Shown here: positions 118 to 60,933 of the stretch, in pieces | How positions within the stretch are numbered: the stretch's first letter is position 1 | Layout of the letters: each line of letters begins with the position of its first letter | Assembly: GCA_002269645.1 (NCBI GenBank) | Contig: NIVC01002144.1 | Span: forward strand, 1-64,000 | Length of the DNA: 64,000 bases | Direction of reading: 5' to 3' | DNA from: Macrostomum lignano | Lineage: Eukaryota | Program-made: the position numbers and the translations under genes | Notes under the pieces: model-generated | What the model saw: only the letters and a program-made list of their open reading frames with translations | The model's database searches: none | Told to the model about the DNA's origin: nothing

Positions 118-3100
118 ATGGATGAGTACAAATCTTTGTATGCTGTTGATGTGCAGGAATTTGATGACTGGTGGAGGCAGCAATTTGCAGAGTTAGAGCA
201 GAGAGTAGACGTGTACAACGCTAATGGCAGTGGATGGGCCATTGACAAAATAAATTTCTTCGACCTTTGCTCTGCCCTCGCTGTTCGAACTCCCTACTAT
301 TCGGGGCATGCGGCTGGGTTTAGTTTGCCGACTGCGCTTTTTCAAAAGAAGGCCGTCATTTCTCCTCCTAGCAGCGGTGAAAATTGCTTTGTTTACGCGT
401 GCCTTGCCTTTCTTCACAAAGATCACTGCCGTATTAAGAAGTCAGCTCAACGAGAATCCTCGTACACCGAATGGCTAGATGAGATTAACATTACGGGACT
501 GAGTCTGCCGATCAATTTGTACGATCTGTCTGCTGTCGAGGAATTAAATCCAACCCTTTGCTTCACTGTTTTCACCTGGGAGAATGAAGCTGCTGAAGTC
601 CTCCGACAGCCAAGCGCAGCTACCATGAGAGGACGAACAGTTGTCCTGCTGATGTTTCTTCCACCATCCACGAACGAGAACTCAGCTGGTGGTCATTGGT
701 GTGCTGTCTCGAACATCAACAGATTGCTGAACAGTAAAGCCCACCTGTACCAGCGAAAGTGGTGTGAGCGATGTCTGCTGTCATTTCACACTAGCAAGGC
801 GTTCGATGAGCACTGTGAAGATATCTGTGAGCCTGGTGGGATTTTTGTTCAGGAAGAACTTCCGGATGAAGATCACAATGTACTTCGGTTTACGGCGTGG
901 GAAAAGACAATCAGCCCACCATTCATTGTGTACGCCGACTTCGAGGCATTGAATGCACCTCACACAGGGCAGCAGACTGAAGCTGGTTCGAGCACTGTAA
1001 AGCTGACAGAGCATGTTGCCGTTGCTGCTGGTTACTTGGTGGTGCACCGAGCAGGCCTCACAGGGTTATCACCTATAGGAGTCGACAATGATGTTAACAT
1101 ATTTGTGAGTGAAAATCCGAAAAAGTGTGTTTCTGACTTCTTGCAGTCCCTTGAACAGCTAGCTCGAGAGGTTTATGGCTGGAACACGGAGTTCAGTCAT
1201 CAGACGGCTATTAGAACGGAGGCTGCAAAGCAACGCTTCCGCGACGCTATATCGTGTCACTACTGCGGAAGCGGCTTTGATAGTGAAAGCGGAAAGCACT
1301 GGGATCATGATCACCTCAGTGGCGAATTCCGAGGTGCAGCCTGTGCTCAGTGCAACATGCAGGCTCGTCTAAAAAGGCGCTTTCTTCCTGTGGTTTTCCA
1401 CAATCTAAAAGGCTATGACCTTCATCTCATTATGTCAACGGCTTTGGATCTCATGGATGGATGGAGGATTTCGGTTATTCCACAGAATCCTGAGCAGTTT
1501 GTTTCAATGAAAGTTGACTTCAAAATCGATGAGTACGAGAGGGGAGGAAAGACTAAGCCATTGTTCTTTACCATTCAATTCATTGATTCTAACCAATTTC
1601 TCAACGCCAGCTTGGCTCAGCTGATCAAGAACCTGCCAGAAGAAGAGTGCACCATCACTAGCCTGCTAAAAAGTAAGTTTCCACTGTTGTCTCCAGAAGT
1701 TTTATTCAGAAAATGCACTTTTCCGTACGACTACTTAACTAATTCAAATGTCCTTGAGGATACCGAGCTGCCAAGTAAAGAACAATTCTACAACGTTCTG
1801 ACTAAAAGCCACTGCAGTGATGAGGATTACAGGCATGCACAGAAAGCATGGCATGAATTCCAAGTTAAAACGCTGAAAGAGTACATGCTATGCTACCTTG
1901 AGCTTGACATTCGGCAGCTCGCCGATGTCTTTGAAAATTTTCGCAAGCTCAGCCTTCGTGATGATGGCCTTGATCCGGTGCATTTCGTTTCAACCCCGGG
2001 ATTATCTTTTGCTTCAGCACTGAAGTCTCTCAAATCCAGAATCGAGCTGATTACGGATTCGCAAATGTATGCAACATTCGAGCGCGGTATTCGCGGTGGC
2101 ATGTCATTTGTGAACATACACAGAGTGTCAGCCAACTCTCCAGATATTAGAAAAAATTTGGAAGCAGCTGACAATCAGACTATCTGCAATGACAATGATG
2201 ATGATGATGATGACTGTCACGACGAGGGCGCTGATCAAGCTGTTCCTACCGAGCTTCTAGCAGTAGATGCTAACAACCTTTACGGTCAAGCTCTTACCAT
2301 GAACTTACCTGCAAATGGATTTCGCTGGCTTTCCGAAGATGAGCTACAGCTGTGGACCGAGGATCGTATCCGAGGGCTCAAAATCTCAGATCCAATTGCT
2401 TATCTGCTCGATGTCGATCTTCTATATCCAGCAGAGATACATTCCACCACTGAAGATTTGCCTTTTGCACCAGAAAAAGAAGCACCAAAATTCAAAGAAT
2501 TTCCTGCCTACATGCAACAGCTTTGGAGGCAGATTACTGGAGACAAAGCAGCCTATCGTTCGGCAGAAAAACTTCTGCTCACCTGCCATGACAAGCAGAG
2601 TTATGTGCTTCATTCGGCTATCTTGGCATTCTACTTGAGCCATGGAATGAAAATCAAACGAATTAATCGAATGATTGAGTACAAACAGGAGCCGATATTT
2701 GCTGACTATGTTAACATGAACAGCGTGAAAAGAGCTGCTGCGACAAACAGCTTCGAGAAAGACTACTACAAACTAAAAAACAATGCGCTCTTCGGAAAAA
2801 CAATGGAAAACGTGCGTAAGCGACGTGACATTCGGATTTGCACCAACACTGCAAAAGCAAAGGTGCTGGCTTCAAAACCATCCATTAAGAACTTTATCAT
2901 AATTACCGACTCACTGAGCATAATTGAATTCCAGAAGACTAAGGTCAAGCTTGATCGTCCGATTTTTATTGGCCAGTGTGTTCTTGACTATTCGAAGCTA
3001 ATCATGTACGAGTTATTCTACGACAAATTGAAGCCTTGGCTTGAGCAAGAGGGTGCCCGTGTTCGGCTCTGTGGTGGAGACACCGACTCGCTCTTTCTTT

Positions 3101-3647
3101 GCATTCAGAATATGGATGTGCAGTCGGAAGTTCTTCCACTGCTAAAAGCAAAGAAACTCCTTGACACTTCCAACTATTCACCTGAGCACCCGCTGTTCTC
3201 AAATGAATTGAAAGCTCGCCTCGGTTGCATCAAGGACGAAGGAGCTGGAGCTCGCTATCTCGAATGGTTGCTTTTGAGACCAAAGCTGTATTCCTTTCTC
3301 GCTAGCACTGCAACTGCTGAAAAGAAAAAAGCCAAAGGCATTCAAGGATGTGTTGTCAAGAAGGAGATTGCGCATAGTGATTACTTGAGAGTCTTCAATG
3401 ATCTGAGTAGCATGTCCGTCATCATCCACAGGATCGCTAGCATCCAACACAGGCTATTCACGCTGCAGCAGCGAAAGTGTGCCTTAAGCATTTGGAGGAC
3501 AAGCGCGCTTGGCTGGCACCGAACTACAGTCTCCCGTTTGGCCATTTCCAACTTCTTCATCCGGAGTCGTCGCAGCTGCAACAGCACGTGAATGCTACAG
3601 CCTCCCGAAAGCGGCGCCGGGAAGAAGACCACGAATTTAATAAGTGA
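118..3647 (+). CDS. polB: Protein-primed family B DNA polymerase, with apparent frameshifts near 130-140 and near 3495
   Basis: Exo motifs YADFE and FHNLKGYD; Pol motifs AVDANNLYG, KLKNNALFGKT and GGDTDS; endonuclease VII-like insert (CHYC...HWDHDH...ACAQCN); N-terminal GSGW and protease-like ENCF...GHW. The conserved tail EDKRAWLAPNYSLPFGH is in the -1 frame from 3495 to TGA at 3645-3647. Frame 2 is open from base 2 to about 140, so the N-terminus probably runs off the window. Confidence 0.95.
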
Positions 3648-4376: not shown

Positions 4377-4967
4377 TTATTTTTGATAGGTGATAAACTG
4401 GCTGATTAAACTATGTAACGTAGAAAGGTCGAAGCGCAACATGCTCATAGATTTTGCTCCACTAAGAACAAAAGAACCAGTATGAAATAACAAGCATTTA
4501 CAATAACGTAATGTATAAATTAGAGCAGAGAACGACTCGGGCTCATACTCAGCGTAAGACAGTATGCCAGAGGCAGCAAGATTTGTGAGGGACAAAGCAT
4601 TGCAGAAGTTAAATTTACCATGAGCAGTAATAGTTTTAATCCGAACACAAATGGCTTGAGGAGGCAGCAGTTGAGCTGGCACTCTCCGATGCAGCATAGC
4701 CACGAAGCGACGGGCAGCCCTTTTGGCGTCTGCGTGGGTCTTGGCACCGCAGATGCTCAGTTGCCCAGTAGGGTAGAGTAGCAGAGTCACTCTGGGACTT
4801 CGCATCCGCTTGATGAGCACCCGGGGCCAGACGGGCCGGTAGATCACATGAGCCATGCTGAGAGCCAGTTCCCGTAGAGGTAGCTGAGCGCCCCTGCCAC
4901 CATCCAGCCTCAGATCTACTCCGCCAACCAGATTGCTCACTCTTAGGGCTGTAGCTGGTGGGCTCAT
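4377..4967 (-). CDS. TBP-like: Divergent TATA-box binding protein homologue (196 aa from ATG 4967), Polinton-encoded
   Basis: Two TBP repeats: VSNLVG...YRPVWPRVLIKRMRSPRVTLLLYPTGQLSICGAKT and YEPESFSALIY...LLFHTGSFVLSGAKS. These align by eye with the TBP core (NIVS...[35 protein letters not shown] and YEPELFPGLIY...LLIFVSGKVVLTGAK). Confidence 0.9.
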   Translation of the reverse strand: MSPPATALRVSNLVGGVDLRLDGGRGAQLPLRELALSMAHVIYRPVWPRVLIKRMRSPRVTLLLYPTGQLSICGAKTHADAKRAARRFVAMLHRRVPAQLLPPQAICVRIKTITAHGKFNFCNALSLTNLAASGILSYAEYEPESFSALIYTLRYCKCLLFHTGSFVLSGAKSMSMLRFDLSTLHSLISQFITYQK

Positions 4968-5487
4968 TTCGATCGTCAACTTCTTCACCAAATCTGCTTC
5001 TGCCAACTTTACTGCTCGTGTGCCACGGACACTGCTCGCTTCTTAAGTTGATGCAGAACTTTGGCTTAAGCCAACTGTAGTGCAGCAACGAATTTCTCAC
5101 TGCACAGCCAGTATCTGAATCTTCAGTCGAGGGTGCTCCCAAATCTTCTAGGTTATAAACCTGTCTACCAAGCAGCTCAGTCAGGAAAATAGACTTCCTT
5201 TCCCCATTTGTCCAGATCGGACCACTGGCAATCCTCAGAATGTCTTCCGCCAGTTCCATGTACGGACGGGTTCCATCATTCCACTTAAACTGGTGCAGAC
5301 TCTTTGATAGCTGTCTGTAGCAAACTCGCATGTCAGGTGAGACTCTCTCCCATGGATACGGAGGTGCGTACACATGGTGAGCAATTCGGTAGCTTCCCGC
5401 TCTGACTTGAACAACTGCCAACTCCTTCACAACAAATTTTTTGCTTGTGCTGTTGCACGGGAATCCTTGGAAGTCAATGTAGTTCAT
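4636..5487 (-). CDS. Maverick-associated DEDD/DnaQ-fold-like protein; the C-terminal ~130 aa overlap the TBP ORF and may be artefactual
   Basis: N-terminal IDFQGF...KELA...PPYPW...LHQFKWNDG...NGERKSIFL...YNLEDLGAP...CAVRN pattern resembles DnaQ-like accessory ORFs I recall from insect and other invertebrate Mavericks. Confidence 0.6.
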   Translation of the reverse strand: MNYIDFQGFPCNSTSKKFVVKELAVVQVRAGSYRIAHHVYAPPYPWERVSPDMRVCYRQLSKSLHQFKWNDGTRPYMELAEDILRIASGPIWTNGERKSIFLTELLGRQVYNLEDLGAPSTEDSDTGCAVRNSLLHYSWLKPKFCINLRSEQCPWHTSSKVGRSRFGEEVDDRNEPTSYSPKSEQSGWRSRSEAGWWQGRSATSTGTGSQHGSCDLPARLAPGAHQADAKSQSDSATLPYWATEHLRCQDPRRRQKGCPSLRGYAASESASSTAASSSHLCSD

Positions 5488-5515: not shown

Positions 5516-6208
5516 TCAGTCCACCTTCTTATATACTTTTCTGCCAGGCAGTTTCAGCCAGGCTGTGTTGCTCCCGTACCCCTTGACTAGACTCGCCTGT
5601 TCTTTCTCCAGTTCACCCCCTCTGCTGGTTGCCATTTTCTTCTTAACTGATTTACCAACAGCAGAAAGCGGAACATTAAGCTTTTTCTGCTGCAGCAAAT
5701 CGATGAACTCGTTCCACCCAACTGGTTCACGCTCACATGACGAATCCCTCACTGCGTGCTGAATCAAGTCCAGTATGTTTGAGGAAGGGATTGACGTGCC
5801 TGCGATTTCCACCTCTCCGTTTTCACAAACTCCAATCAGCTCTGGATTGGTGGACAGGATCGTCCATAGACTGCGAGCCCTGGTTTTGAATTTCTGTGGC
5901 ACCGACTTGCTGATCTTCTCTTCCCAGGTGTTCATCTGGGGTGTCTCTGTTTTCATCAACTTGGCTTCAGTATTTCGTGATCCTTCTTTTCCAGCGTGCT
6001 TGCGCTTGGCCAGCAAACTTTGCATTGCACTTTGATACATGGCGGTTTTCACATCTTCTGGATAATCCTCGGCATACAAGATATCATCGCATTTCTTCTG
6101 AGCCTGCTTCAAGTCAGCGTCAGTGCTAGTCTCATTTGGCTTCAAATTCTGCACTAACATCTCATACTCTGCTTTAGAAATCAGAACCATTTCTGAAAAT
6201 TTGTTCAT
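5516..6208 (-). CDS. Conserved Maverick PZ protein
   Basis: Motifs MVLISKAEY, ILYAED..E.VKTAMYQ, VPQKFKTRARSL, NGEVEIAGTSIPSSNILDL, PVGWNEFIDLL, NVPLSAVG; lies next to the ATPase as in Mavericks. Confidence 0.8.
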   Translation of the reverse strand: MNKFSEMVLISKAEYEMLVQNLKPNETSTDADLKQAQKKCDDILYAEDYPEDVKTAMYQSAMQSLLAKRKHAGKEGSRNTEAKLMKTETPQMNTWEEKISKSVPQKFKTRARSLWTILSTNPELIGVCENGEVEIAGTSIPSSNILDLIQHAVRDSSCEREPVGWNEFIDLLQQKKLNVPLSAVGKSVKKKMATSRGGELEKEQASLVKGYGSNTAWLKLPGRKVYKKVD

Positions 6209-6512
6209 TTTGCTTCTTTTTCTTTACCAGCTTAAGCAGAATCGGGAGTATTTTGATGAAGCCAGCCTTTAACAAGTCTATCTTTCTTCTCTGCTGAGTA
6301 ATTTTTCGAATTATCTCTTTTGACTTTGCAAGAACAGCTTTTTCATCGATCGAAAACGATAAATTGTTTTGTAAGAGATTATGACAGGCCTCAACAAGAA
6401 AATAACGCACTTCTTTTGGACAATTTTTTATCAACAGCTGCTTGAAGCGCACGGTATATTTAGGTGACGCAAGAACCGCAAAAAGACTTGCATGTGAATC
6501 AAGCACTTCCAT
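6174..6512 (-). CDS. Small conserved Maverick protein with a C-terminal amphipathic cationic helix (cupiennin-like virion protein)
   Basis: EACHNLLQNN...K..LAKSKEIIRKI pattern, then LKAG|FIKILPILLKLVKKKK, which resembles an adenain cleavage site followed by an amphipathic helix. Confidence 0.7.
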   Translation of the reverse strand: MEVLDSHASLFAVLASPKYTVRFKQLLIKNCPKEVRYFLVEACHNLLQNNLSFSIDEKAVLAKSKEIIRKITQQRRKIDLLKAGFIKILPILLKLVKKKKQNEQIFRNGSDF

Positions 6513-6554
6513 AGCGATGAAAACAATAGCCGATAAAAAACAAGCTTCACTTTC

Positions 6555-7202
6555 TTAAGCAAATACAAGATGGGGTCGCTGGTTGGGCAAAATTCTGGCC
6601 CGCACTCGCAGCTCATCGGGAGTTGATGGGTGAAAGTCTAGGAACAGGTAGGCTCCCCTGTTCTGCGCGGTCACGTGCTTGAACACTGACAGCAGAAAGC
6701 CGGGCTTCTCTGTAAAGCACTGCCTGCCCAGTGCTGCAATCTGCAGCTGGTCTCGGGGGTTTTTCAAGATAGCTAAGTACATTACATTCAAGCTCATTGT
6801 TCGCGACTCTTTTCCCTTGAAAAATATATTCTGAGTCAGCATCACCAAAAAGCACGGCAAGTGATGTGCGATTCCTGTGAAAAAATTTCGCATTGAAGCA
6901 GAATTTGAAGTTTCCTCTATTAAGTCATCGAAAACAACCAGGTCATTGGGCCTAAGTGCTGCCTCGATGTTGGTGGGGAATCCCTGGCGCAGCTGCACAC
7001 CTAGGCTGCTCAGTTCTGCATGGCCTGCCTGTGAGATCCCATAGTACCACAGAACTCTGCCAGGCTTCACATCAAACATGACGTCTCTGTACTGGATCAG
7101 GTGTTTGACAAAGGTTGTTTTTCCTGCATTGGTGGGCCCGCAGACAATCATGCAGCTTCCCTGCCTGAGGCGGATATCGTAGCAAACTCGCTTTTCTCCC
7201 AT
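6555..7202 (-). CDS. FtsK/A32-like genome packaging ATPase
   Basis: Walker A GPTNAGKTT, Walker B LVVFDDL, LTQN and SLNVMY...KNPRD motifs. Confidence 0.95.
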   Translation of the reverse strand: MGEKRVCYDIRLRQGSCMIVCGPTNAGKTTFVKHLIQYRDVMFDVKPGRVLWYYGISQAGHAELSSLGVQLRQGFPTNIEAALRPNDLVVFDDLIEETSNSASMRNFFTGIAHHLPCFLVMLTQNIFFKGKESRTMSLNVMYLAILKNPRDQLQIAALGRQCFTEKPGFLLSVFKHVTAQNRGAYLFLDFHPSTPDELRVRARILPNQRPHLVFA

Positions 7203-7231: not shown

Positions 7232-7741
7232 TCACGGACATCTTTTTCTTAAGTTGGCTTCAAACCTCTGTAAGATTCTATCATTCAAATGATTTTTTTC
7301 ATTAGAGTGCAAACTCTTTAAAATACCCTCAAATGACCGATTGATCAGCAACTTTTGATAAGCAAAATAGATGCAAAACACTCCGCATTTATTAGAGTTA
7401 GCACATTGAAATCTGTTTATATTGCTTCGGAGATAAAAGCCAGTTGTTTTAATCTCTCGAAACAAATTATAAACCACAGATAAAATTTCAGGTTCCCAGC
7501 CGAGGGAGTTGAACAGCTCAATGCAATTTCCTTGCCCAGCATAGCACACCACCCAATGACCAAATGAGCCATTGTGCTGTAGTAGGATAAACACAAACTT
7601 GTTTTCAAAGGGAATTGATCGATATTTTCTTTTTAGACTCAAAGACAATACATTTTTATAGCGTGAATGTAAAGTAATGATGAAGAATTTTCGGCAAGAC
7701 AAAAATTTTCTGGCGAGATGGAGTAGTTGAATTGCTTCCAT
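7232..7741 (-). CDS. Adenain-type cysteine maturation protease
   Basis: GHW, FNSLG and Q...S.KCGVFC motifs; the catalytic His and Cys and the oxyanion Gln are present, with Asn at the usual Asp position. Confidence 0.9.
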   Translation of the reverse strand: MEAIQLLHLARKFLSCRKFFIITLHSRYKNVLSLSLKRKYRSIPFENKFVFILLQHNGSFGHWVVCYAGQGNCIELFNSLGWEPEILSVVYNLFREIKTTGFYLRSNINRFQCANSNKCGVFCIYFAYQKLLINRSFEGILKSLHSNEKNHLNDRILQRFEANLRKRCP

Positions 7742-7746
7742 GCCAG

Positions 7747-9030
7747 TTAAGAGGAATAGTCCAGCAAAAGCTCCCGGTGCTTGGTGACCTCAATCAGCGA
7801 GTCATACAGGCACAGAGCGATCAGGGACACCGTTTCGTCCAGAGCCTGTCGGAAGCGAATCTCCAACCGCAGGTTGCCCTCCTTCTGTCCGTACCACAGA
7901 GCCGCTCCCTCTGGTGTGAGATCGAATGCAAACACCGTGCTGTTGTTGGAGAAGAGCTGGTAAGGGATCCACGGAACCGAGTTCGTGTGGCTTGCAGATT
8001 GACAGCTTTTCAGGTAGTGTAAGTATTCTCTTACAAAGGAATTGTTTTCAGGTGTGAAGGCACCGTGGCACACGGTTTCCCCACCTTTCTTTAGAGCCAA
8101 CCGGCTAAGGTTGAAGCTCTGGAACTGGAACGGGCTCGCGTGATGATGACCGTTGAATGCACGGTGGCTCACGAAGGCCAGCATGATGAACTTCGGCAAT
8201 TTTCCATGAGTGAATCCTTCAATGTTTTTAGATTGAATGCCCTGGGGTAGGATGAAGTTCTGCATTTCAGTTCGCTCGATGGGATACAGTGCATTTTGGT
8301 TTGTCAACCCCTGCTCGTGGGCCAGGCTGATGTGGGGCACCACTTTGACTCGGCGAAGATGCAAAATGCAGTGAGAGATTTCCATGCGGTATGCCGCGTT
8401 GTTTGCATTCGGGCTTCTGATGGCAAAGGCCCCATCGCTGGGCACCAGTTTGATGTGCAAGTGCAGATTGTTTAGCAGAAACACTGGGCATTGGAAAACA
8501 TCGCTGAAGAGCGGTCCCGCATACTCCATCCATCGGGATTCCCTGTGGCTCTCCGTGTGCTCTTCAGCTGCCGAGTTCGGCTCCAGGAAGCCAGCAGGGT
8601 AAAGTTTTAGTTGCTGGGCATCAGATGAGCTCATTAGTGCTTTGAAGTACGCATGGTAGGGATAGAGCTGGTCTCCACCAGATACCACTCGCTGGTTAAT
8701 GCTCACAATTACATCTGAGAAGGCTGTAGACAAAACAAAGTTTTCTGGGTGCACGTCACTGTCTCTGCGCTCGGTGATGATGCCATCTCCATCTCGAACA
8801 TCCTCCCTCAGCAAACCCCCATCCAGTCTCACAAGGCGGCAGCGAATATAAAGAAAAGAATTAAGCAAATCAGTGTATTCATCGGCAGATTGGTGGCAGT
8901 CAAATTCAATGGGGGAGTTTGCAGTAATGGAATTTACTGGGTGAATATCAACATAAGTAGCTTTTTCAATGCAGGTTTGTAGAACAGGCGTCTTAAATAA
9001 ATCAAGTCTGGGATTGAATCCGTAAGCCAT
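7747..9030 (-). CDS. Double jelly-roll major capsid protein (PY/hexon), 427 aa, intact ORF
   Basis: LDLFKTP..QT.IE...YVDIHP...PIEF...YTDLLNSFL N-terminus; G.LPK...AFV...AFNG...SPF.FQ.FNL; FAFDLTP...GNLRLEIRF C-terminus. Confidence 0.93.
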   Translation of the reverse strand: MAYGFNPRLDLFKTPVLQTCIEKATYVDIHPVNSITANSPIEFDCHQSADEYTDLLNSFLYIRCRLVRLDGGLLREDVRDGDGIITERRDSDVHPENFVLSTAFSDVIVSINQRVVSGGDQLYPYHAYFKALMSSSDAQQLKLYPAGFLEPNSAAEEHTESHRESRWMEYAGPLFSDVFQCPVFLLNNLHLHIKLVPSDGAFAIRSPNANNAAYRMEISHCILHLRRVKVVPHISLAHEQGLTNQNALYPIERTEMQNFILPQGIQSKNIEGFTHGKLPKFIMLAFVSHRAFNGHHHASPFQFQSFNLSRLALKKGGETVCHGAFTPENNSFVREYLHYLKSCQSASHTNSVPWIPYQLFSNNSTVFAFDLTPEGAALWYGQKEGNLRLEIRFRQALDETVSLIALCLYDSLIEVTKHRELLLDYSS

Positions 9031-9032
9031 GT

Positions 9033-9326
9033 CTATGACAGAGAGTCGAGCACGCGTTTCACAGTTTTCTTGCTGACTTTTCGCTTTCGCTTTCCTCCGC
9101 CTGCTGCATTCTTCTTTGCTTTCGTCTTCCTATTCTTAAGCTTTTTCTTACTAGCCTTGCTCGGATTTCTTTCATTGCACCTCTTATTGGTGCGATCTCT
9201 ACCAGTTGCCTTTCGGGTGTACTTCTTCTTCAATCGTTTCGGACTTGCTTCAGTATTTCTTTTCCGCCTGACATTGCTATGCGTTGAGAATGATGATGTA
9301 GCCGCTGGAGGAGGCTGGTATGTCAT
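9033..9326 (-). CDS. Lys/Arg-rich basic core/DNA-condensing protein (PW/pVII-like); start uncertain
   Basis: Highly basic ORF between mCP and MCP. An alternative ATG at 9418 hits TGA after 12 codons, so the 5' part may be disrupted. Confidence 0.6.
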   Translation of the reverse strand: MTYQPPPAATSSFSTHSNVRRKRNTEASPKRLKKKYTRKATGRDRTNKRCNERNPSKASKKKLKNRKTKAKKNAAGGGKRKRKVSKKTVKRVLDSLS

Positions 9327-9414: not shown

Positions 9415-10242
9415 TCATTGAATGCGTTTCTCTCGAATCTGAACTGTGAGCAGAACAGGGCTGAGTGTCTGGGCAATCAGTGGGCAACCATAGATGTCAC
9501 GCAGCTGAACTCGAATGCTGTGAAGAAGACTGATTCGTTGAATCGGGAAGAATATTGTTTTCTTAAATATTTTTGTTTGATAGTTGCCCCATTCAATGCC
9601 GGCTTTCATTCCAACTGTTCTCAACAGGGAGCCCAAGTTGCAATTAGTTGACTCAACGACACTGCAGTGTACATTGATTAAGCTGGTGCGCGGACAGCCA
9701 ATGCAATGCTCGGACACGCGGCTCCCTGGCTGGATTTTCACAGCCTGGTTTCCAAATCCCAGCCAATGCAGAATTTTGCTAGATGGAAGAAACAGCTCTG
9801 CTCTCGCAGTGTTGTTGTGCACCACAGTTCGTGAGTTGCGGATTTCGAACTTCATACCAAATTCCCTGTTGCCACTACGCCCCATCAGGCCGGACTCATC
9901 AGCCTCCATCTCAGACTCCCTGTCACTCATCGCATCAAAGAACAGCGAATCAGAGTTGGCCAGCAGCTGATTCAAACGCTCCACCAGCTCCTCCACTCTA
10001 GCAAAGCGTCCGGGTTGAAGAACCAGGGCCTCATGCTCTCTTCCATCTGAGACAGTGAAGCAGTAAGGCTCGTCAACATTGAACCATGCAGCAGGCAGAT
10101 GGATTTCAGCCAGACCTGCCTCATAGTCCACATTTCGATCCAAGTAAATAGGTGAAGGCAGGTAAAAATTAAAGTCACTAGGAGTACCTTCAGCATGCTC
10201 ACTGTTAATCAAAATAGTTCGCATTATAATTTTAAACCTCAT
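9415..10242 (-). CDS. Single jelly-roll minor capsid protein (PX/penton); ATG at 10242 or 10224
   Basis: ILINS....TPSDF.FYLP.PI.L....YEAGLAEIHLP.AWFN N-terminus and I.VQLRD.YG C-terminus. Confidence 0.88.
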   Translation of the reverse strand: MRFKIIMRTILINSEHAEGTPSDFNFYLPSPIYLDRNVDYEAGLAEIHLPAAWFNVDEPYCFTVSDGREHEALVLQPGRFARVEELVERLNQLLANSDSLFFDAMSDRESEMEADESGLMGRSGNREFGMKFEIRNSRTVVHNNTARAELFLPSSKILHWLGFGNQAVKIQPGSRVSEHCIGCPRTSLINVHCSVVESTNCNLGSLLRTVGMKAGIEWGNYQTKIFKKTIFFPIQRISLLHSIRVQLRDIYGCPLIAQTLSPVLLTVQIREKRIQ

Positions 10243-10261: not shown

Positions 10262-11315
10262 CTAAACCTTTCTTAAGTCTTTTTCATCCACCCAGCCTGT
10301 CGAGTCGTAGCCGGCCCACTTCACCAGATAGCGAATTTTTCCCTTCTGCTTCTCCGTTTTCAGGATCTTCTCAATCACATACAGCCGCTGTGAGTCCGGC
10401 ACCGCCTGCAGCTCATGCTCATGAAAGAGACCCCGGATCTCCTCACCCTTCATGTCCCTAATCTTGTACATGTACGGATAGTGCTTCGGTGCCCTACATA
10501 CTACAGTGTACACCTCCTCACTCCAGTTGGCCTTGTATCCTTTGTATCCAAATTCTCACTGACTGCTTTTCACTGAATTTGGGCTTCTTTGGCTTCTTCA
10601 CAGTCTCAATGGCTCTTCCATTGTAAAGGTTCATCCAGACCTCAGTCTCATTCTCTTTGCATACGCTAGTCGGTGCCATTTTGATGCTTCTGTGGTAAGT
10701 GTTGTTGTACGACTTGACCAGCTTTGGCAACACATCAACCCAATGCAAAGTGCTCTTGTGGGTGAAATATCGCCACATTTTGTTTTTCAAAGTTCTATTC
10801 CACCTCTCTATGATGGCTGCTTTTTGCTCACTATTAGTGGGGAATGCCAAAATTCCCTTGCTTATACAGAACTCCCGAAAATTGGTATTGATGAACTCTT
10901 TTCCTTGATCCGTGCGGACTGTGCGTGGCTGGCGCTTTGAGCACCTCAGGATACTCTCGAATGCGAACTTGACTTCCGCAGCTGATTTGTTTTTTAGAGG
11001 CCTGGCCCAACCAGATTTAGAGAGGACATCTATACATGTGAGAGTATACTTGTAGCCGTTATTGTATTTTGCAAATGGTATCATCTCAACCAGGTCAAGT
11101 TCCCACTGATCATCAATAGCCCTAACAATGATTGGTGCCATAGGATAGCGTCTCCTAGCTTGCTTGTGCAGTGTGTACACAGGCTGCTCAGTCAGCCATT
11201 GCCCGATGCTCTTTTTAGATTCACGATTATCCTGTGTTTTCTTGAGCTCGTGCAGAAGCTTTGAGACACCCGAGAAACTGGCAGGCTGAGCAGGGTTGTA
11301 GTAGATCTTTTCCAT
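10262..11315 (-). pseudogene. RVE (DDE) integrase with C-terminal chromodomain, frameshifted at about 10543-10552
   Basis: MEKIYYNP..P.SFSG start at 11315; catalytic WELD, RTDQGKEF and IERWNRTLK motifs. The second frame continues KGYKANWSEEVY...IRGLFHEHELQ...IEKILK...YLVKWAGY (chromodomain) to the stop at 10262. Confidence 0.92.
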
Positions 11316-11356
11316 TATCAAAATCAAGCTGAATGAAAGCCTGCAAAACAATTTTT

Positions 11357-11503
11357 TTAAGTTCTTTTCGCGGTTTGCTCATTGAGCCACTGTTCAATGC
11401 TCTTTCAATTTTTATGCCCACCCTCTTCTCTAACTTGATGCAGCAGCTTTGAGCAAATTGAAAAACTAGCTGGTTGGCCAGGAGCAAAGTAAATTTTTTC
11501 CAT
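11357..11503 (-). other. Diverged duplicate of the integrase N-terminal ~45 codons, with an internal TGA
   Basis: ATG 11503 reads MEKIYFAPGQPASFSICSKLLHQVREEGGHKN*KSIEQWLNEQ; the integrase reads MEKIYYNPAQPASFSGVSKLLHELKKTQDNRESKKSIGQWLTEQ. Confidence 0.85.
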
Positions 11504-11762
11504 TTTCTCAAGAAACAAAAGTCAACAGTCTAATTTTTTCTTAAGCACAAGAACAAAGGAAAACAATTTTTTATGAAAAGAAGCTTTTATATTTTTCAGC
11601 GGATAAGAAACAATAGGTTGCATGATTTTCTTAAATGGAGAGACTTAATTAAGTTTTCTGGATAAATGAGCAATGTTAATTATAGAAATTGTTAAATGAG
11701 CCAATTTAAGTCTGTCACCAGTCACCAAAGTTCTTCAAAGCACTTCTTATTCTTCTTCTTCT

Positions 11763-12506
11763 TCACTCCTCATCCTCATTGAGGCGCAGTCTCATGGCAT
11801 TCTGCCTGCGCAGCGGATATGGTTGCTTGCGCTTCCTGACGTTCTCGACCGCAGCTGCTTCAGCCCGGAAGCGATACCAGACTGGGTCCTGCAGCAAATC
11901 CGAATCCTGCTTTGGGATAAAGCCAGCTGCAGCACTTGTCACCGGTAGAGGCGTTGATGCGACCACTTCATCGTCGATGCGCAGAGTGCTTGATTGGACG
12001 CCCTCATCCTCAGTCTTCGCAAGCCGCACGATGTCGTCCTTGTTGCTGTTGTCATCATCATCACCGTTGCTCTCGCTCGAAGATCCCGACTCCAGCTCAT
12101 ACACATCAGAAATTTGGCGTGGGGCAGACAGCTGCTCGTCGATCCATGCAGCCTGCTCCCACAGTTTTCGCCACAGAGCTGGTGCCAAAGCCACAGTGTT
12201 TCGCTTCAAAAATTCTTCGCAACAATCTTCTGGAAGCCGTCTTAGCCAGATGATGCCGTTCTTAACCTCAACAAACTTATCAAAACCGAGTTTGATGATC
12301 CTCTGTTGCCCGCCTAGGGCCGCCTTCACGAGAGTTGGCTTCAGTTCTTTCAACTTCTCCCATTGTCGGATGTTGAGGTTAAATCCGGGAACGCCAGGTT
12401 TTAAACTCGCTGTGCTGCCATGTCGATAAAATTTCCGAATCGCAATAAACTGTACTTCTTCATACTCTTGTACTTGAAGTTTGTAGCCTTCTCCAATATC
12501 GACCAT
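11763..12506 (-). CDS. Tandem PC4/Sub1-like ssDNA-binding protein with acidic tail and basic NLS
   Basis: DIGEGYKLQVQEYEEVQFIAIRKF...KPGVPGFNLNIRQWEKLK matches the PC4 fold pattern. A second degenerate repeat follows (LGFDKFVEVKNGIIWLR...VALAPALWRKL...IDEQL). RKRK near the C-terminus. Confidence 0.8.
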   Translation of the reverse strand: MVDIGEGYKLQVQEYEEVQFIAIRKFYRHGSTASLKPGVPGFNLNIRQWEKLKELKPTLVKAALGGQQRIIKLGFDKFVEVKNGIIWLRRLPEDCCEEFLKRNTVALAPALWRKLWEQAAWIDEQLSAPRQISDVYELESGSSSESNGDDDDNSNKDDIVRLAKTEDEGVQSSTLRIDDEVVASTPLPVTSAAAGFIPKQDSDLLQDPVWYRFRAEAAAVENVRKRKQPYPLRRQNAMRLRLNEDEE

Positions 12507-12580: not shown

Positions 12581-12588
12581 TTTATATA
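12581..12588 (-). promoter_or_regulatory. Candidate TATA box (TATATAAA) upstream of the PC4-like ORF
   Basis: Canonical sequence about 75 nt upstream of ATG 12506, in the AT-rich spacer inside the terminal region. Confidence 0.4.
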
Positions 12589-12589
12589 C

Positions 12590-12801
12590 AAATATCTCCT
12601 ATGTAAACACATGCGGCTATGTATTCACATTACCCCTATGGGACACAGGTGCCTATGTACTCTCATTAGGAGTCTACGGAATTCCCATGGCTTTGCCTGC
12701 GGCAGAGTTGAGCTATGCAAACACATAGGCGCCCTTCTGATCCGGGCCCACGGAATTTCCGTGGCTTTCTATGCGGCAGAGTTGTGTTATCCTCTACTAC
12801 T
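12590..12801. repeat. Probable right terminal inverted repeat of the Polinton
   Basis: Non-coding, with short internal repeats (GCGGCAGAGTTG x2, CCTATG several times), ending TACTACT. The partner TIR is outside the window, so the inner boundary is approximate. Confidence 0.7.
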
Positions 12802-18450: not shown

Positions 18451-19165
18451 GAGCTACATGAAGACGCTCCTGAAGCACATGAAGCAGCTACAGGGCTCAT
18501 GAAATTTTGAGCACTATCGCTATCATTCAAGCTTTGCTTTTGCTTTGCTTGCAATGGCGAGGGTCTTTGCTTGTGCCTGCCAATGCATATTTGCCGTACA
18601 TTAAGCATGCAGGCTCCTACACCACACACAGGCGCTTCCGCATTGCTTTTTCATGAAAAGCATTCAACAATGAGCACTCACTCCTGGGCGAAAACGGGAA
18701 ACTTGTTTTTTTTTCTGCAACTCAACTAAAAAGCAATTGTCAATTCTGTTCAAGAATTGCCCTAGAATTGCCCTGTAGCTGTGTATGCTATCCTGCTACC
18801 GGTCCATTCAGTCTCTTTGTTTCCTTTGTCTTCATCAGAATGAAAGTCTCTCTGTGGGGTTCTATCCATCAACCCATCAATTCCATTGCCTGAAATCTTC
18901 GTTGCTTATGCAGACAGAAACATGATTGAAAACTTCTTACCGGAACAACAGTGGCAGCTGGAATTTTCCATTGTTCCTGAGCCCGCTGCTGCACCAGCAC
19001 CGGCACACAACGGCAACGAGGACCTGGCAGGTGTTTTTAGGAAGCTTCCTAAAAACGCTATATTTTTACCCACCGACAAACCTCTGCCGCTGATGTTTGC
19101 TGAGATGTGAGAAAAACTATCCATAGCTCGTATTCTATTTTATCTACATGTATCTATCTAGCTCG

Positions 19166-20633
<1,468 letters not shown>

Positions 20634-21433
20634 ATCATTCATCTATCTACGAGTATTTTTGTTATTTCTTTTACTGAAAATATTTTATGAGATAAAATTA
20701 AAATATTTGCTTAGTTACCTGTAGACTACTATGAGTAGAAGATTGTGAACAAGGAATGTCGAAATTAATAAGGCAAGTCACTCTGCCTATATGTCATCAT
20801 CCTATTTGTGCCAGATATCAATTCGTAGCGGTCGTAAACTTTTGATACTAATTTAGTTTTTGTTTATCGCGCTGCAAAACTGTGTGCTTCTAACTTGCTT
20901 GCTTCTGCTCCGGGAGAGGCCACAACAAGCGCAACAAAGTGGGTACAGCTTACAGCACAGCATTACAGACTTGTAGTTTATGCTGTCTCCCAACCAATGC
21001 AAATATTAGTAAACTGCCGATCGAAGTATTAATGCATACAGTGGGAAGAGTTGCATTGGAAATTTCTTCACTTGTCGGGTCCTGAACTGCACTGCCCCTC
21101 CGCCTGAATTCAGCTGGCACTAATCTTGTGGCCGCTTTGGACTGGAGTTGCGGGGGGGACTCTGGCTGGGGGGCTGCTGCGCCTATGCAGTAATGTATAG
21201 TATGTAACTTCTTTACTCTTAAAACGAACTAGAGGCATGGATGTCTAGAATTAGAGATCTGGACCAGAAACAGAGCTCTTAATTTGGGTGTAAAAATTAA
21301 TATTTAAAAGCGATAGTTCAATCTAATATAATGTATATTTAATAATATAGTGTATGTAACTTGTTTGTAACTTGTCAGCCACAGATCAGCTGGAAAAAGT
21401 AGGACTGAACCTTTCTGGAGCCTAATCAGATGA

Positions 21434-34268: not shown

Positions 34269-41841
<7,573 letters not shown>

Positions 41842-42920: not shown

Positions 42921-44289
42921 CGGTATTCTTATAGCGAGGGAATTTCGATAATCTTGAAGTTAAAGTTGGAGTCTGACAAATCCTAGAGTTAATGGACGCT
43001 GAGGTTCTTAGAGTTAGGAGAATGAGATTATATAAGATTTCTGCTTTCAGAGTCTGCCCCGGTAAGTTGCAGACTCGACAGCAGACTCCGAAGCAAATCG
43101 CATGTTACTCACGTCCAATATTGTCCATTCCGAGCGATGCTTTATCGCATTGAATAAAGTAGCAAAAGTGCTGGCAGATTTCACTGTAGAATGGAACCGT
43201 TGGGGGGGGGGTTTAAAAATTAAATGCAAATTTGTCACTGCAGCTTTTATGCAGCTGATGGTTAGCAAACAGCGACAGTACTTGCGGTTGCTAGGCGCCC
43301 GAGACCCCGTTGCTAAGTAAAACCTTAATGAGTCCAGATTGGAGCACATAGCCATAATTATTCCCAAGTATTCCCAATAGTTGGTTGCTATTGGCAACTA
43401 ATGGAGTACACAGAAGTTTGCTCTCTCTTTAATCAAGAGTGCGACATGCACATGGGACTTCTGAATCGTTGTGAGCGGAAATCTCCTCACCTCATGATGC
43501 TTGACAATACTGGGATCAACTTCAGCTCCAATTATTAATGATTTAATTATCTGTTAGCCCGAAACCGATTGCTGATTAACAAACTTCTACAGTTTGCAAA
43601 ATTGCAAGTGGCTAAACAAACAGTGCTAGAAATATAATGTACGAGTTGAAATCGTTATCAACCGGTTGTATTTATGCGTGTATGGCGGGCTTTTTTGACT
43701 GTGAACAGGTCGCAGAACCTGCATTCGCGAGTTTTTACCAACTAATATTAGCTTAGGTAAAGTTTTGTTCTATACATGCGAACTGGTATGATCTTACCAC
43801 TTTAATATTAGTCTACATGATCCAAATTTATAAGCCATGTAAACATCCGCAGTTAAATAAGAGAGAGACGTCTGCTGCTTAAAACTCGACAGTTCAGTTG
43901 TAAACGCTTGTAAAATTTTAGCTGTATTTTTTCAGCTGTAACTGATGCTGCAATGCCGTATCAAAATTACTGATGATTGAGGGCTAAAGTTTGCAATGAA
44001 TTGCCTCGAACAGCAGAAGCAACTTCTGCTGTGAAGAAAGTGTGACAAACAGAGAAATACGAACAAACGTAAGCAAAAAATGCAACAAAGGTGCATGTGG
44101 TCAGAAAGAGTGGAATGCAAGTTGGGGCAAAATGACTCAAGCGAGTCAATTCCGTCCGGGAGTGCTTGGAAAACCGAGACAATTAGTTTGGTGTTTTTGT
44201 TACTTGCTACTTAAAGTAATGTCTCGACGTTCTATTGCCGAAATTTAAATTTGGCTATAGCAGTCTACATGTACACAAATATGTTACAT

Positions 44290-46610
44290 TAGTTGTGCAT
44301 CTGGGTTGCTGAACGTCTGGGTCTCGGTCACCGCCTGCCACAGCCGAGCCCTCTGGAAGCATTTCTGGAAGCGACCAGAAGTCAGGAAGCATTTTGCCGA
44401 CTTCCAAAAAGTCCGCATCGAAAGAGAGGAACAGATGCTGATGGATCTGGTCGACAACATTGAGACACCTAGCAATGAAGCAACACGCAAGGAATGGAAA
44501 TACACACTCGCCAGGGAACCCGGCAACGAAGAAATTGAAATGGCCATCCGAGAAATGAAGGACAGCAGCCCGGGAGAAGACGAACTACGACTCAGATGCC
44601 TCAAAGCAGCTCCCGACGTCATTAGAGAGGAACTAAGAGACCACATTCGCTTCATGTTTGCACAGCGAGTATGGAAGTGGAACGACGAAGAAAAACTCGG
44701 GATTATCATCCCATTATTCAAAAAAGGCGACCGCCAAGACCCCAACAACTACCGCGGCATGTGTCTCCTGCCCATGGTGAGCCGTATCCTCGCGAGAATA
44801 CTGGCCACGCGCATCCGAGATGGGCGGAGGCGATTGGAATACTGGACGACAATCAAAACGGGTTCCGCAACGGCAGATCTACAGCCGACAGCGCCCAGAT
44901 ATTCGTACGCCTCCAGAAGACATCGAAGAATACCTCGCAGCCAAACGAGCACAAGGAGACTGCTACGTCGAAGACGAATGGATCGCATGCTTACTTGACC
45001 TCAAGAAAGCGTATCCCCGGGTCTGTAAACCTCTCCTCTGGGCCCATGAGCGTTATAGAGAAATTGCAGGACCTTCACGAGTTCACCAACTACAAAGTCA
45101 AAATAAAAAACCAGTCCAGTGAAGAGTGGAAACCAGAGAGAGGATTAAGGGAAGGCTGCCCAATATCCCCGGTGCTGTTCAACATGATACAACAAGCATG
45201 CATGCGGAAAGTCGAAGAACACCGCGGAAAGCGGCAGCAAAACTACGAAACAGAAACTGTGGGATACGATGGAACTGGTTACCAGGCCACTCTCTGCCCC
45301 CACAAAGAGCAAACCAGTACAACTCAGAGACAAAACATCACAAGTTCTCAACATCCCTGTTCGCGGATGACACGACTCTGCATGGACAAAGAACAGAAAT
45401 CAATGAAGGCCTAAACATAACGAAGGACTGGATGAAGAAGTTTGAATAGCAGACGAACGATAAAAAACAGGAGATCTTGGTGTTTGGAACAAACGAAGGA
45501 AGCAAAGTTAGGATGCTAGGCTCATGGTTAGACAGAAAACACGACATACAGCAAAGAATACAGAAGGCGGCGAAAGGGTGGGCATCCATCCGCAAACGCT
45601 TCATCAAATGTCGCCTGAAAAAAAACGACTCAAGCAAGAGTAGTCGAGGCCTGTGTAGAGAGCATCCTCTTATTCCATGCCACTCGGCCTTTCTGGAAAT
45701 CAGAAACCCAGACACTATAGTAATTCGTTGACAAGATCTACAGATATATCTGGAGCTCAAAGAGACAAGAACCGTTACGGCAGATGGAAGAACATGGAGT
45801 TAACAGTCAGGACATCAGAAACGAACTGGGAGTGGCTTCGATCAGAGTAAAAGTTGAACAAGCTCACTTGAGGCGAATAGGCCACATCCTGCGAATGCCA
45901 GACGAACGGCAAATTAAAAGAGCTATACTCGGGTGGCTCACTCCACTAGAAAACATCTGCAAGAGAAAGAGAAAGAGAGACAACACCATCGCCTACTGGC
46001 AAAAGCTCCTACGAGAAGCCGGAATAGAACCATCAACAGTGGAACGACTTGCACTCGACCGTGAAGCCTGGAAGCACCTGGTCCAAGAACGAGTCGAACA
46101 CATGCAAAACTGGGAAAAACAGCAAGGCAATCGCAAAGAACGAACCGCGCCCACCAGGCCCCCACACAATACCGGCAGCAGCAGAACCAAAAGCAGACCA
46201 CAGAAGACAACACACAGATGTGAATACCCCGACTGTGGCAAAATCTGCTTGAGAAGGGAGGGCTGGCCATCCACCAGAAACGGCTGCGCAGAGTGTACGC
46301 CGATCCCGTCACATTCAATTGCACAAAGTGCGAAAAGACATCCGACAAGAAGCGACACTACTCAACCACAGAAAGACTTGCCAAGGAGAAACAGAAGTGA
46401 ATGCCAAAACAGTAAGGTGCACCAGATGCGATACGATGGTATCGAAATCCAATCTGGCGAGGCATAGGCGAACATGCATAAGGAGCGGCGGCAGTCGAGA
46501 TCGAAAGTCAAAAGGGAGGAACATCGACGACCACACCGGCGACGGCAACGCTAACGGCGACAACAAGGGCAACAACAACAGGAGACAGCCAGACGGGTCG
46601 GACAGCTGCT
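44290..46610 (+). mobile_element. 5'-truncated, frameshifted non-LTR retrotransposon (RTE-like RT plus C-terminal C2H2 fingers), copy 1
   Basis: IIPLFKKGDRQDPNNYRGMCLL, LDLKKAYPRV, GLREGCPISPVLFN and SLFADDT motifs split over several frames; C-terminal Cys/His finger motifs. Confidence 0.9.
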
Positions 46611-47149
46611 AGAAAGTATCGTGCAGAGACAGCAAAGTGTGAAGACTGTGGTCGGGTTTTGTCCAAAACTAATATGGCAAGACGTGCAGGGGAACGTAGC
46701 TATCGGTGTCCCATGCCCTTCGGGTGAGAACGGCAAGAAGAATAAGAAGAAGATGGTGATGATGATGCTCTTCTATGAGGCCAACCTTCTCGCGGTGGAG
46801 AGCGGACGGGGAAAACCCCGGCAAAGAGGCTACAAGGGAAAGACGCTCGGAGGAAGGCAAGGAGGAGACTCCAACCGACCGACCGGCCCTTTTCAGCAAC
46901 GACATTCGGAGGTAGCCGAACCGAATGTCGAGATAAATTAGGCCAAACCCAACAGGGTAGACGAGGGAAGGGACAACAGACAGAGAAGCGAAGAGGTCGA
47001 ATGGAGACTGCGCACGATTGAGCCGAACCCAGGACCGAAAACGGAGAAGGAGAAAACACAGAGAGGAAAGAGGAGAGCACGGAGGAGGCAGCGGAGAAGA
47101 GACGAGAAGAGAAACGAAAGAAGAGAGAAAGCGGAGAATAAAGAATGGA

Positions 47150-59005: not shown

Positions 59006-60933
59006 TCAATCGTTCAGCATCTCCAGCAACAAGTCACTTGGACGACTGTCGCCGTCCACGTCGCCTGCGCTGAGAAGCTGCGTCCCAGTGTTATGAGACT
59101 CCTCAGTCTGTTCGGTAATTATGCGCAGAACATGTTCTGCAGAGGTGGTAGCCTTCGAGCGAGATGACTGGCCAGGTGTGCGGGCCGCAGTCGAACGCTT
59201 GGGTCGGCTGCGCTTCGGCAGTCCCAGCTGCAATCTCGCCGTCTCGCCGCACCGAGTGAATGCGCGATGCAGTTCGTTGCGGTAAATTGGCACCTCGGCG
59301 TTCTGCAGCCACTGCCTCGCGACAGCAACTTTGGCCGGGTTCGCCGGCGCCGAAACGTACCCAGCAATTCTTCGGCCTGACAGGGATGAGTTCGCCAATT
59401 CTTGCGACGTAAAGACAGCCCTAAAGACAGCACGCAGTAGCGCCAAGCGCGTAAAGCGCCGCATGGCAACTGCGTCTAGGTCGACCGCCTGCTGATCTTC
59501 CATCGCCTTCTTATATTCTTTGTGTCGGTCTTCAAGTTCAGACCGGAGTCGCAAAGGTACAGAAAAAAACTTCTGGCTGTCGGAAAGGGCGACCAGTCCG
59601 CCGGTAGCAGAGCTAGTGGCGGTCCCTTGCTCCGCGTCACATGCGCGGATTAACGCGCGCGTTTCGGCAACAGACAGGTTGCGATCAGCGGAGAAGGTTG
59701 CCTGGTCGCCAAATGCGTCATCGTCAGCAGACTCGTCCGCGGAGGAGTGCGCGCTAGAAACAGCGTCACCAAAGGTATCATCGGGGCGCACATGTGATGC
59801 AGCTGCAGCAGCACCTGAAGTGGTTGCACTTGCGGCCGGCAAAAGGCAATTTGACGCCCTGGCGAGCAGCGCGTTGGCGGTGTCGACATTACGCAGTAGG
59901 CAATTGTTGCGCGCTTCGGCCTGCTCGACCTGCATGACCAGCTTCCGCTCCATTTTGGCCTGCACACTCGTCTTGTGCAGGAGCGTGCGGTTCTGTGCCA
60001 GCAGGTTGGTCTCAGAAGTACGGAGGAGCTTAAGTTCGCCACCTGCGTATGTATTTGAATTGGAAGGATTGACAGGTGAATCAGCTAACTTATGGTTTGC
60101 TTCTGCTTATATATGTGGACGGAATGCGTCAGTTGATGAATCTAGATGCATGCAGAATACGACAATGCAGATCGATCTGATGACCCCATGAGTAACTTAA
60201 TCAGAAACTTACGCAGAGATTCGGTCAAGGCCTTCTCCCTTTGGAGCTCAAGCACGAGACCGCGACAGGAGCTGCAGGACCGCGGCAGCTCGGCGGGTGC
60301 CGCGTGGACGTTAGTCAAGCTGGCAGCACCAGCAGCCTCCCTTTTCTTGTCGAATGGGCCCTTTATTAGTGTGCCCAGATAGCGCCGGGCCGTGCTACGC
60401 TTGCTCCGAGCTGTCACGACAGCGACTACGGCGCCGGTGTTTAGAGGCAGCTGCACATCCGACCGATGCGAAATGATGGCACTGGTGGACATCAGGCTGG
60501 AGTCTGTTGACACTACCTCTGTTCGCTGGTGGAAGTCGGTATACTGAAATAAAAAAAACCGGGCCTTGGCTTCGGCTTTAAACGGCACCATTTCAGGTTC
60601 GTTATCTTCTTCAGCGGCGAGTCGATTCCGCGGAATCGGAACTTCTTCCGAATGAGCAGTGCTATCGATGGCAGTCGGATTAGCGACGCTTAATCCACCT
60701 GGCGGATTTAAATCCGCATCTGCCACAGCTGCGGCGGCGGCGGCGGCGGCGGCGGCTCCAGTCGGGACGTTGGCACCCGAATCGGTTGCCGTAGCCCGAG
60801 CCGACACCTTGGCGACACTGAATGGTACTCCTATTTTCTTAGAAACACCAGACGGCTTCTTTATTGTTGCATGCGTTTTTTTTGCCTCTTTACGTCTTTC
60901 TTTCTCCGAAGCGTCGCGACACGTGCGGCCCAT
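59006..60933 (-). CDS. Transposon accessory (TnpA-like) protein with coiled coil and BEN domain, 585 aa. Exons: 60933-60213 and 60042-59006
   Basis: Phase-1 intron C|gtaagt...acgcag|GT joins two ORFs in frame. ALLRAVFRAVFTSQELANSSLSGRR...NPAKVAVARQWL...FTRCGETAR fits the BEN pattern. An in-frame upstream ATG at 61008 is an alternative start. Confidence 0.75.

Follow-up and report, generated by a model that had tools for sequence, protein, structure and literature searches.

The closest described counterparts of a small element with its own TATA-binding protein (TBP) come from herpesviruses and from large DNA viruses. The KSHV protein ORF24 reads TATT on late promoters together with host Pol II; according to the available text of the report, it is large, binds Rpb1 directly and needs five viral partners, and it keeps the four phenylalanines of TBP while the acidic residues that contact TFIIB are absent (PMC12529657). 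The accessible part of a second study defines two glutamates as the TFIIB signature and describes the TBPs of large viruses as diverged at this signature and mostly paired with a TFIIB of their own (PMC7221094). In the adintovirus paper of Starrett et al. (PMC8502044; preprint 10.1101/697771), TBP is named as a figure-legend label; the available text does not specify the element that carries it and describes neither a promoter nor a mechanism, and TBP and TATA are absent from one supplement. The accessible portion of another paper makes no mention of TATA, PC4 or transcription (PMC10748475), and, subscription papers and repeat databases aside, the label of Starrett et al. is the only trace of a Polinton/Maverick TBP that we found in the partly available literature. 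Because of this label, the novelty of a Polinton TBP is somewhat lower than the initial annotation of the locus had assumed. What appears new is a predicted variant box shared by genes of the TBP-bearing elements, together with a canonical TATA box before PC4.

The window analyzed here is a stretch of 64,000 nucleotides from contig NIVC01002144.1 of Macrostomum lignano. It contains a TBP gene (vTBP) that is the last gene of a minus-strand block and convergent with the gene for a family B DNA polymerase (PolB). The Pfam TBP profile PF00352 matches the protein in two stretches with E=4.8e-26 and 90.8 bits, the cut-off being 22.9, and 35 of the 37 matches of a PDB sequence search are TBPs. The AlphaFold2 model (pLDDT 95.7, pTM 0.87), which leans towards cellular TBPs through the inclusion of such proteins in its 50-row input alignment, is predicted to have the saddle fold of the family. 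Its top PDB matches in Foldseek are all TBPs, at a TM of about 0.8, and VIA gave Z=20.0 with an rmsd of 2.0 over 177 residues. The model is closer to cellular TBPs (TM 0.8) than to viral TBPs (0.5-0.75); its BFVD matches include giant-virus TBPs, several of them at 10-13% identity. The identity of vTBP is 27.5% to the host TBP and 22.7% to the host TRF2. The initial annotation, made from the letters alone, had described an intact 196-aa two-repeat TBP closing the minus-strand block. The reading frame, the two Pfam stretches and the modeled saddle bear this out, and the PF00352 match rules out a protein without any TBP profile.

The gene is carried by a Polinton/adintovirus of roughly 16 kb that is present in many copies in the host genome (Table 1). 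The minus-strand block runs in the order PC4, integrase, putative penton, basic protein, capsid, protease, ATPase, ORF112, ORF230, exonuclease-like gene and TBP. Polintons have terminal inverted repeats beginning with AG, lengths of 15-20 kb and a 6-bp target duplication. Two full copies measure 15.9 kb (C1113) and 17.1 kb (C211) and have AGTAGTAG termini; the repeat in the window is the right one, and its partner lies outside the window and is present in the full copies C1113, C211 and C529. The flanks of C211 plausibly carry a 6-bp repeat; in C1113 such a repeat is imperfect. PolB, an rve integrase, a packaging ATPase and a protease were all found, the latter two with matches below cut-off, in agreement with the identity first given to the element. 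A double jelly-roll capsid protein is predicted as well: among the Foldseek matches listed for its low-confidence model, 28 of 29 are double jelly-roll capsid or scaffold proteins.

Table 1. Features of the TBP-bearing element in the window (positions are those of the 64,000-nucleotide stretch)
Feature	Position	Strand	Remarks
Family B DNA polymerase (PolB)	118..3591	plus	HNH/endonuclease VII insert; gene begins before contig start
AATAAA	4376..4381	minus	overlaps TBP stop
TBP (vTBP)	4377..4967	minus	196 aa, ATG to TAA, two lobes, without N-terminal extension
Exonuclease-like ORF	4636..5487	minus	283 aa; putative, N-terminal domain presumably exonuclease-like
CTTAAGAA box	5040..5047	minus	80 nt before TBP start, inside upstream ORF
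ORF230	5516..6208	minus	conserved, 230 aa, no box upstream
TATATAAGAA	5526..5535	minus	before exonuclease-like ORF; canonical TATA box and shared TAAGAA core
ORF112	6174..6512	minus	conserved, 112 aa
CTTAAGAA box	6552..6559	minus	47 nt before ORF112
Packaging ATPase (A32/FtsK-like)	6555..7202	minus	weak Pox_A32 and P-loop matches below cut-off; gene context
Adenain-like maturation protease	7232..7741	minus	Peptidase_C5 E=0.003, below cut-off; no box upstream
CTTAAGAA box	7246..7253	minus	51 nt before ATPase
Double jelly-roll major capsid protein	7747..9030	minus	low-confidence model, pLDDT 40
Small Lys/Arg-rich protein	9033..9326	minus	putative core protein (inferred label)
CTTAAGAA box	9133..9140	minus	110 nt before major capsid gene
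Putative penton	9415..10242	minus	presumed from size and gene order
CTTAAGAA box	10270..10277	minus	35 nt before putative penton
rve integrase	10518..11315	minus	265 aa against 355 aa in C130; start region duplicated
CTTAAGAA box	11538..11545	minus	42 nt before first (duplicated) integrase start
PC4-domain protein	11763..12506	minus	Pfam PC4 E=4.7e-6, above cut-off; coactivator or ssDNA-binding fold
Canonical TATATAAA box	12581..12588	minus	before PC4
Terminal inverted repeat	12647..12801	unstranded	terminus AGTAGTAG

Two of the labels in Table 1 are our own assumptions: the penton, which had no library match in the profile searches, and the exonuclease-like protein, which had none in Pfam, PHROGs, PDB sequences or a homologue search. 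For ORF112 and ORF230, protein-atlas matches to helical GED look-alikes at low recognition, and one match at 0.75, were not accepted. The window copy is damaged or mis-assembled at 10263-11545, where the integrase start is duplicated and the integrase reading frame is short, and the tail of PolB (about 3495-3591) is in another frame than in C1113 and C529. The HNH/endonuclease VII insert of PolB lies at about 1246-1362 (PolB residues 377-415); in the available text of PMC10748475, an HNH insert is described as found only in the pPolB2 of nematodes and oomycetes. In the full family-A copies C1113, C211, C529, C878 and C754, the interval from the left terminal repeat to PolB, which lies outside the window, holds an ORF of 320-475 aa whose N-terminus is rich in Cys/His and which contains internal repeats. 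In full copies of this family, a polypyrimidine tract and an AG before the PolB frame suggest splicing. Elsewhere, the window contains many tandem arrays (17440-42918), including (AACC)n and (TAAC)n, a 1.5-kb run of (TATC)n (19151-20649), which accounts for a 509-aa ORF, and a 44-bp satellite (40092-41482). Beyond these arrays lie frameshifted fragments of LINE-type reverse transcriptase (44261-48574) and a group of minus-strand open frames, 260-370 aa long, without an accepted Pfam match (59006-63644).

A search of the host genome with vTBP, a member of what we call family A, returned 151 matches. Among the matches listed (150 of 151), 95 are near full length (from residue 8 or less to residue 186 or more) at 75-100% identity; 94 of these have no stop, and three further full-span matches at 53-66% identity have stops. 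Host TBP and TRF2 are each present at three loci with intron-free cores (C70, C713 and C1301; C350, C3090 and C3513), so that copy counts of the element overstate independent insertions; this suggests a partly triplicated genome or assembly. A second family, B, is about 46% identical to family A in PolB, 56-58% in integrase and about 32-35% in TBP. The family-B TBP scores 68.4 bits against PF00352, and all 17 near-full-length matches at 90% or more are free of stops. The ATPase, protease, capsid and exonuclease-like genes lie beside TBP in 16/16 stretches examined for gene neighborhood (14 of family A, 2 of family B), and PolB in 15/16. The PC4-domain gene is found in both families, at different places and orientations (C110, C738).

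Among 23 distinct coding sequences, nine family-A variants were selected for comparison; pN<pS holds in all 36 pairs and in both halves of the gene. In the part outside the overlap with the exonuclease-like gene, mean pS is 0.73 and mean pN 0.26, and vTBP is under purifying selection. The overlap itself spans 332 nt (4636-4967), in which the tail of the exonuclease-like ORF runs in the +1 frame; in family B (L037:1713-2101) it has the same offset and is 389 nt long, with an unrelated tail sequence. Selection for an open tail is modest (P 0.014-0.06 per lineage, in a partly circular test). The overlap might block translation of TBP from the longer message. Only three AATAAA signals lie on the minus strand between 4376 and 12600, one of them on the TBP stop, so the transcripts of the block likely share a 3' end.

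In a 64-row tree, families A and B and seven database relatives fall on one side of a branch (100/98), as a clade apart from the host TBP and TRF2. The tree does not place the donor, because long branches meet. TRF2/TLF proteins have lost three of the four phenylalanines. Derivation of vTBP from TRF2 was rejected on the low identity, the separate branch and the different set of phenylalanines lost. The protein is kept across many PolB lineages and two distant families, and we conclude that it is a real, old and selected Polinton TBP lineage. Profile searches found 10 database relatives, on contigs mostly under 3.1 kb, and two scans of viral contigs found no outside relatives with genomic context. 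A metagenome scan gave 48 ordinary-looking TBP loci with no adjoining Polinton genes except two weak P-loop matches, and phage records gave one haloarchaeal virus TBP. Seven proteins from metagenome contigs (P0012, P0017, P0022, P0023, P0030, P0044 and P0046) are short, divergent eukaryote-type TBPs outside the vTBP clade, and these may be other viral TBPs.

The two parts of the gene (4377-4620 and 4620-4967) have different histories of similarity among the elements C1424, C759, C754, C100, C201 and C84. Five elements agree at 96-100% in the N-half, yet at 47-74% in the C-half and 45-57% in PolB; in C201 and C84, the C-half is 100% and PolB 98% identical. These comparisons suggest that the gene straddles a module-swap junction, the C-lobe being inherited together with the replication module and the N-lobe together with the virion block.

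Yeast residue numbers were assigned to vTBP by motif offset from anchor positions that we assume. On this basis vTBP keeps N12 (N69), T61, L63, F146 (F190) and F161 (F207), as well as the stirrup glutamates E142 (E186) and E144 (E188). The changes from yeast TBP are F99 to P48, A100 to R49, F116 to Y65, V122 to S71, T124 to C73, N159 to T112, V161 to T114, P191 to S147, V203 to K157 and V208 to H162. Where a canonical TBP has four Phe and two Asn, vTBP therefore has P48, Y65, F146 and F161, and N12 and T112; the two acidic stirrup residues are retained. The Phe pair of repeat 2, the acidic stirrup (Y141-E142-P143-E144) and the replacement of the second conserved Asn by Thr had been recognized at the outset and stand in the residue alignment. 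The lobe-1 pair had been read as Trp and Tyr; the second of these is right (Y65), and the first is corrected to Pro48, as a gap-free alignment puts W47 at the Arg that precedes the first Phe and P48 at the Phe itself. P48 is kept in 9 of the 10 aligned relatives, and W47 is not kept in family B. Loss of both lobe-1 Phe could weaken DNA bending.

Among 10 relatives taken from the two families, seven residues (R49, Y65, C73, K111, T112, K157 and H162) do not vary, so the DNA face was altered a single time and has been held since. In families that are only about 32% identical, invariance extends to N12, R49, T61, L63, Y65, T112, F146, K157, F161 and H162. Among the 10 aligned relatives, the P191 equivalent is Ser or Asn and the V203 equivalent an invariant Lys. 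E142 and E144 are likewise invariant in 10/10 relatives, and the residue that follows is changed from Leu to Ser in the window copy. The strand on the TFIIA side differs in vTBP (H40, I42), and the family-B TBP has lost the basic helix. Relative to cellular TBP, a seven-residue insert follows strand 1.

Upstream of six genes, in all family-A copies scored, we identified a variant box, YWTAAGAA (mostly CTTAAGAA), 28-80 nt before the start codon; for most boxes this distance is 35-65 nt. If CTTAAGAA is taken as a TBP site of 8 bp, its differences from TATA fall at positions 1, 2 and 6. WTAAGA occurs at -115 to -25 of 7/10 genes in the window and 6/10 in C130, against means of 1.0 under synonymous-codon and shuffle nulls (0 of 2000 simulations each). 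The motif was first found on the window, which makes the test there post hoc, and the other family-A copies are its kin; family B is a more independent test. In C110, of family B, WTAAGA precedes 5/10 genes against a null of 1.3 computed with three segments out of frame (1 of 2000 simulations), and TAAGAA is the top de novo 6-mer. Eight of the nine CTTAAG in the window's element lie 28-110 nt before a minus-strand start, and the looser WTAAGAR also occurs twice on the opposite strand of the gene block (7747, 11603). At 20 distinct sites the flanks of WTAAGA are biased to C or T before and A or G after. Counted over the entire window, the motif shows no enrichment (55 against 54.6 expected): the signal is positional. 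A test of codon choice favors the box in two elements of family A (5/17 against 1/59) and not in C738 (0/6 against 1/14). A role as a trans-splice branch point was set aside, as no acceptor AG was seen by eye before ORF112.

Gene-by-gene scoring covered nine family-A elements; left out were three that nearly duplicate the window copy and two that are partial. The variant box precedes integrase (9/9), penton (8/8), ATPase (9/9), ORF112 (9/9), the exonuclease-like gene (9/9), TBP (9/9) and capsid (5/9), and none is in range of protease (0/9), ORF230 (0/9) or the basic protein (0/5). The canonical TATAWAWR precedes PC4 in 9/9, the exonuclease-like gene in 5/9, integrase in 1/9 and no other gene, with 0 before penton, capsid, ATPase, ORF112 and TBP. 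In C211, one of the near-copies left out, the TATA box of PC4 is absent. Family-B boxes are nearer to canonical (CATAAGAA and TATAAGAA, and TATAAAAG before TBP), and the penton of this family has one box 12 nt and a second 95 nt before its start.

Given the residues and boxes presented above, we propose that vTBP binds YWTAAGAA, recruits host TFIIB and Pol II and acts as a late-gene switch, a reading to which we assign a probability of roughly 0.57. Host TBP would start the genes with canonical boxes, after which vTBP would accumulate; it would prefer the variant box, which host TBP would read poorly, and host TFIIB would dock on its E-P-E stirrup. In this way vTBP might drive the structural and packaging genes, and its own gene as well, where the variant box would provide positive feedback. 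Any gene that lacks a box would have to be expressed from a bicistronic or spliced message. Of the two functions offered in the initial annotation, a promoter-specificity factor and a TBP decoy, the former fits better: most structural and packaging genes share a candidate non-canonical box, a canonical TATA lies before PC4, and vTBP combines a changed DNA face with retained TFIIB glutamates. A search with the TFIIB family (PF00382) gave 15 matches on six contigs, none at the listed TBP loci, and no TFIIB-like candidate was seen by eye among the ORFs of full copies; an element-encoded TFIIB was accordingly rejected, within the reach of a search that could miss a very divergent one.

The match between protein and box lies in the 5' half of the site. 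In the accessible text of PMC1636458, TBP's C-terminal lobe reads this half, P191 excludes bases other than T at position 1, and I194, V203 and L205 set position 2. The equivalents of P191 and V203, which are among the residues named for these positions, are changed in vTBP, and positions 1 and 2 are the 5' positions at which CTTAAGAA departs. According to the same text, wild-type TBP also accepts a G at positions 3 and 6, which weakens the idea that the change of V122 to Ser is required for G at position 6, and PDB titles record wild-type TBP crystallized on T(-30) and G(-26) variants. Departures of these tolerated types mean that host TBP may read the boxes. Other observations also count against the switch: capsid has a box in 5/9 elements only, and protease, ORF230 and the basic protein have none; the family-A vTBP gene itself stands behind a variant box, which leaves the source of the first vTBP unaccounted for; family-B boxes are closer to canonical; and the codon-choice test fails in C738.

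These objections lead to the best of the alternatives, namely that host TBP/TFIID reads the boxes as weak TATA promoters and that vTBP adds activity without new specificity, for instance by evading host regulators or by working where host TBP is in short supply. The tolerance of wild-type TBP for single departures at positions 2 and 6, the near-canonical boxes of family B and the kept TFIIB glutamates are all consistent with this, as are the changes on the TFIIA-side strand (H40, I42) and the loss of the basic helix in family B. We consider it unlikely, however, because the split between PC4, canonical in 9/9, and the CTTAAGAA genes, five of which have no canonical box in any element, is kept across lineages, and because the changes on the DNA face are invariant and not drifting.

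That invariance, in families about 32% identical, also bears on a role for vTBP as a decoy that soaks up host TFIIB, as a pure protein sponge would not need a conserved DNA face. A related form, in which vTBP silences the integrated element by sitting on its boxes, would leave the activator of the variant box unexplained. Both forms draw on the TFIIB stirrup being the best-kept surface of lobe 2 and on the loss of both lobe-1 Phe and one central Asn, and more than 100 integrated copies would need silencing; on balance we regard a decoy or repressor as quite unlikely.

Baculovirus late promoters have the form (A/G/T)TAAG, and the TAAG core of the box might analogously serve a different machinery, for example the polymerase of a large DNA virus that co-infects, as a late signal of the initiator type, with vTBP serving other promoters. 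The core WTAAG is indeed invariant, in a site matrix that was selected on WTAAG, and the family-B box 12 nt before the penton start is too near that start to act as a TATA box. Dependence on large viruses has also been reported for Polinton-like viruses (available text of PMC11296320). Conservation nevertheless extends over eight bases, Y-W-T-A-A-G-A-R, the length of a TBP site, mostly at 35-65 nt before the start, and the family-B penton has another box at 95 nt, making this explanation very unlikely in our view. A neutral, recently captured fragment of host TBP, mechanically easy to obtain from an intron-free core and named in the initial annotation as a refuting case, is barely credible and was rejected in view of the many copies, the 27.5% and 22.7% identities to host TBP and TRF2, pN<pS under purifying selection, and a clade that spans two distant families and many PolB lineages.

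We return to the late-gene switch as the preferred reading. In a fuller and more tentative version, which we rate somewhat below even odds, a captured TBP would have co-evolved with a non-canonical box into an orthogonal two-stage programme that uses host TFIIB and Pol II alone, a one-protein counterpart of herpesvirus late transcription with an independent origin in an integrating virus of 16 kb; it would include lineage-specific pairs of TBP and box and a reshuffling of the two lobes through recombination between virion and replication modules. To our knowledge, the timing of Polinton capsid genes has not been worked out, and whether Polintons have a regulated viral cycle is a standing question, for which one small protein and an 8-bp site offer a direct test. 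If correct, the switch would be an independent case of viral promoter selection by a TBP that keeps its contact with host TFIIB. It would also mean that nature has produced a TBP of altered specificity, which could inform on how TATA is recognized and might find use in an orthogonal promoter pair.

The element resembles Polintons/Mavericks and adintoviruses in its PolB, rve integrase, ATPase, adenain-like protease, double jelly-roll capsid and terminal inverted repeats. With cellular TBP and TRF2/TLF, vTBP shares the two-lobe saddle (TM about 0.8), N12, F146, F161 and the acidic stirrup; unlike cellular TBP, it has two of the four Phe and one Asn changed, as well as the equivalents of P191, V203, V122 and V161. 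The Nucleocytoviricota and other large dsDNA viruses likewise encode a TBP fold. In contrast to theirs, the glutamates of vTBP are invariant, and no TFIIB or RNA polymerase gene was found with the element; the PF00382 search and the ORFs of full copies, in which a very divergent TFIIB could be missed, gave no TBP-TFIIB pair of the large-virus kind. The likeness to the TBP mimics of beta- and gammaherpesviruses would be one of function, by analogy: a viral TBP fold and a variant late box used with host Pol II. A variant box indeed precedes most structural and packaging genes of the element, its late timing being our assumption. As a 196-aa bare core with E-P-E, vTBP falls outside the herpesvirus family of ORF24, UL87 and BcRF1, and it differs from those mimics in having kept the TFIIB residues and lost two Phe. 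A retained contact with host TFIIB would thus set vTBP apart from the TBPs of both herpesviruses and giant viruses.
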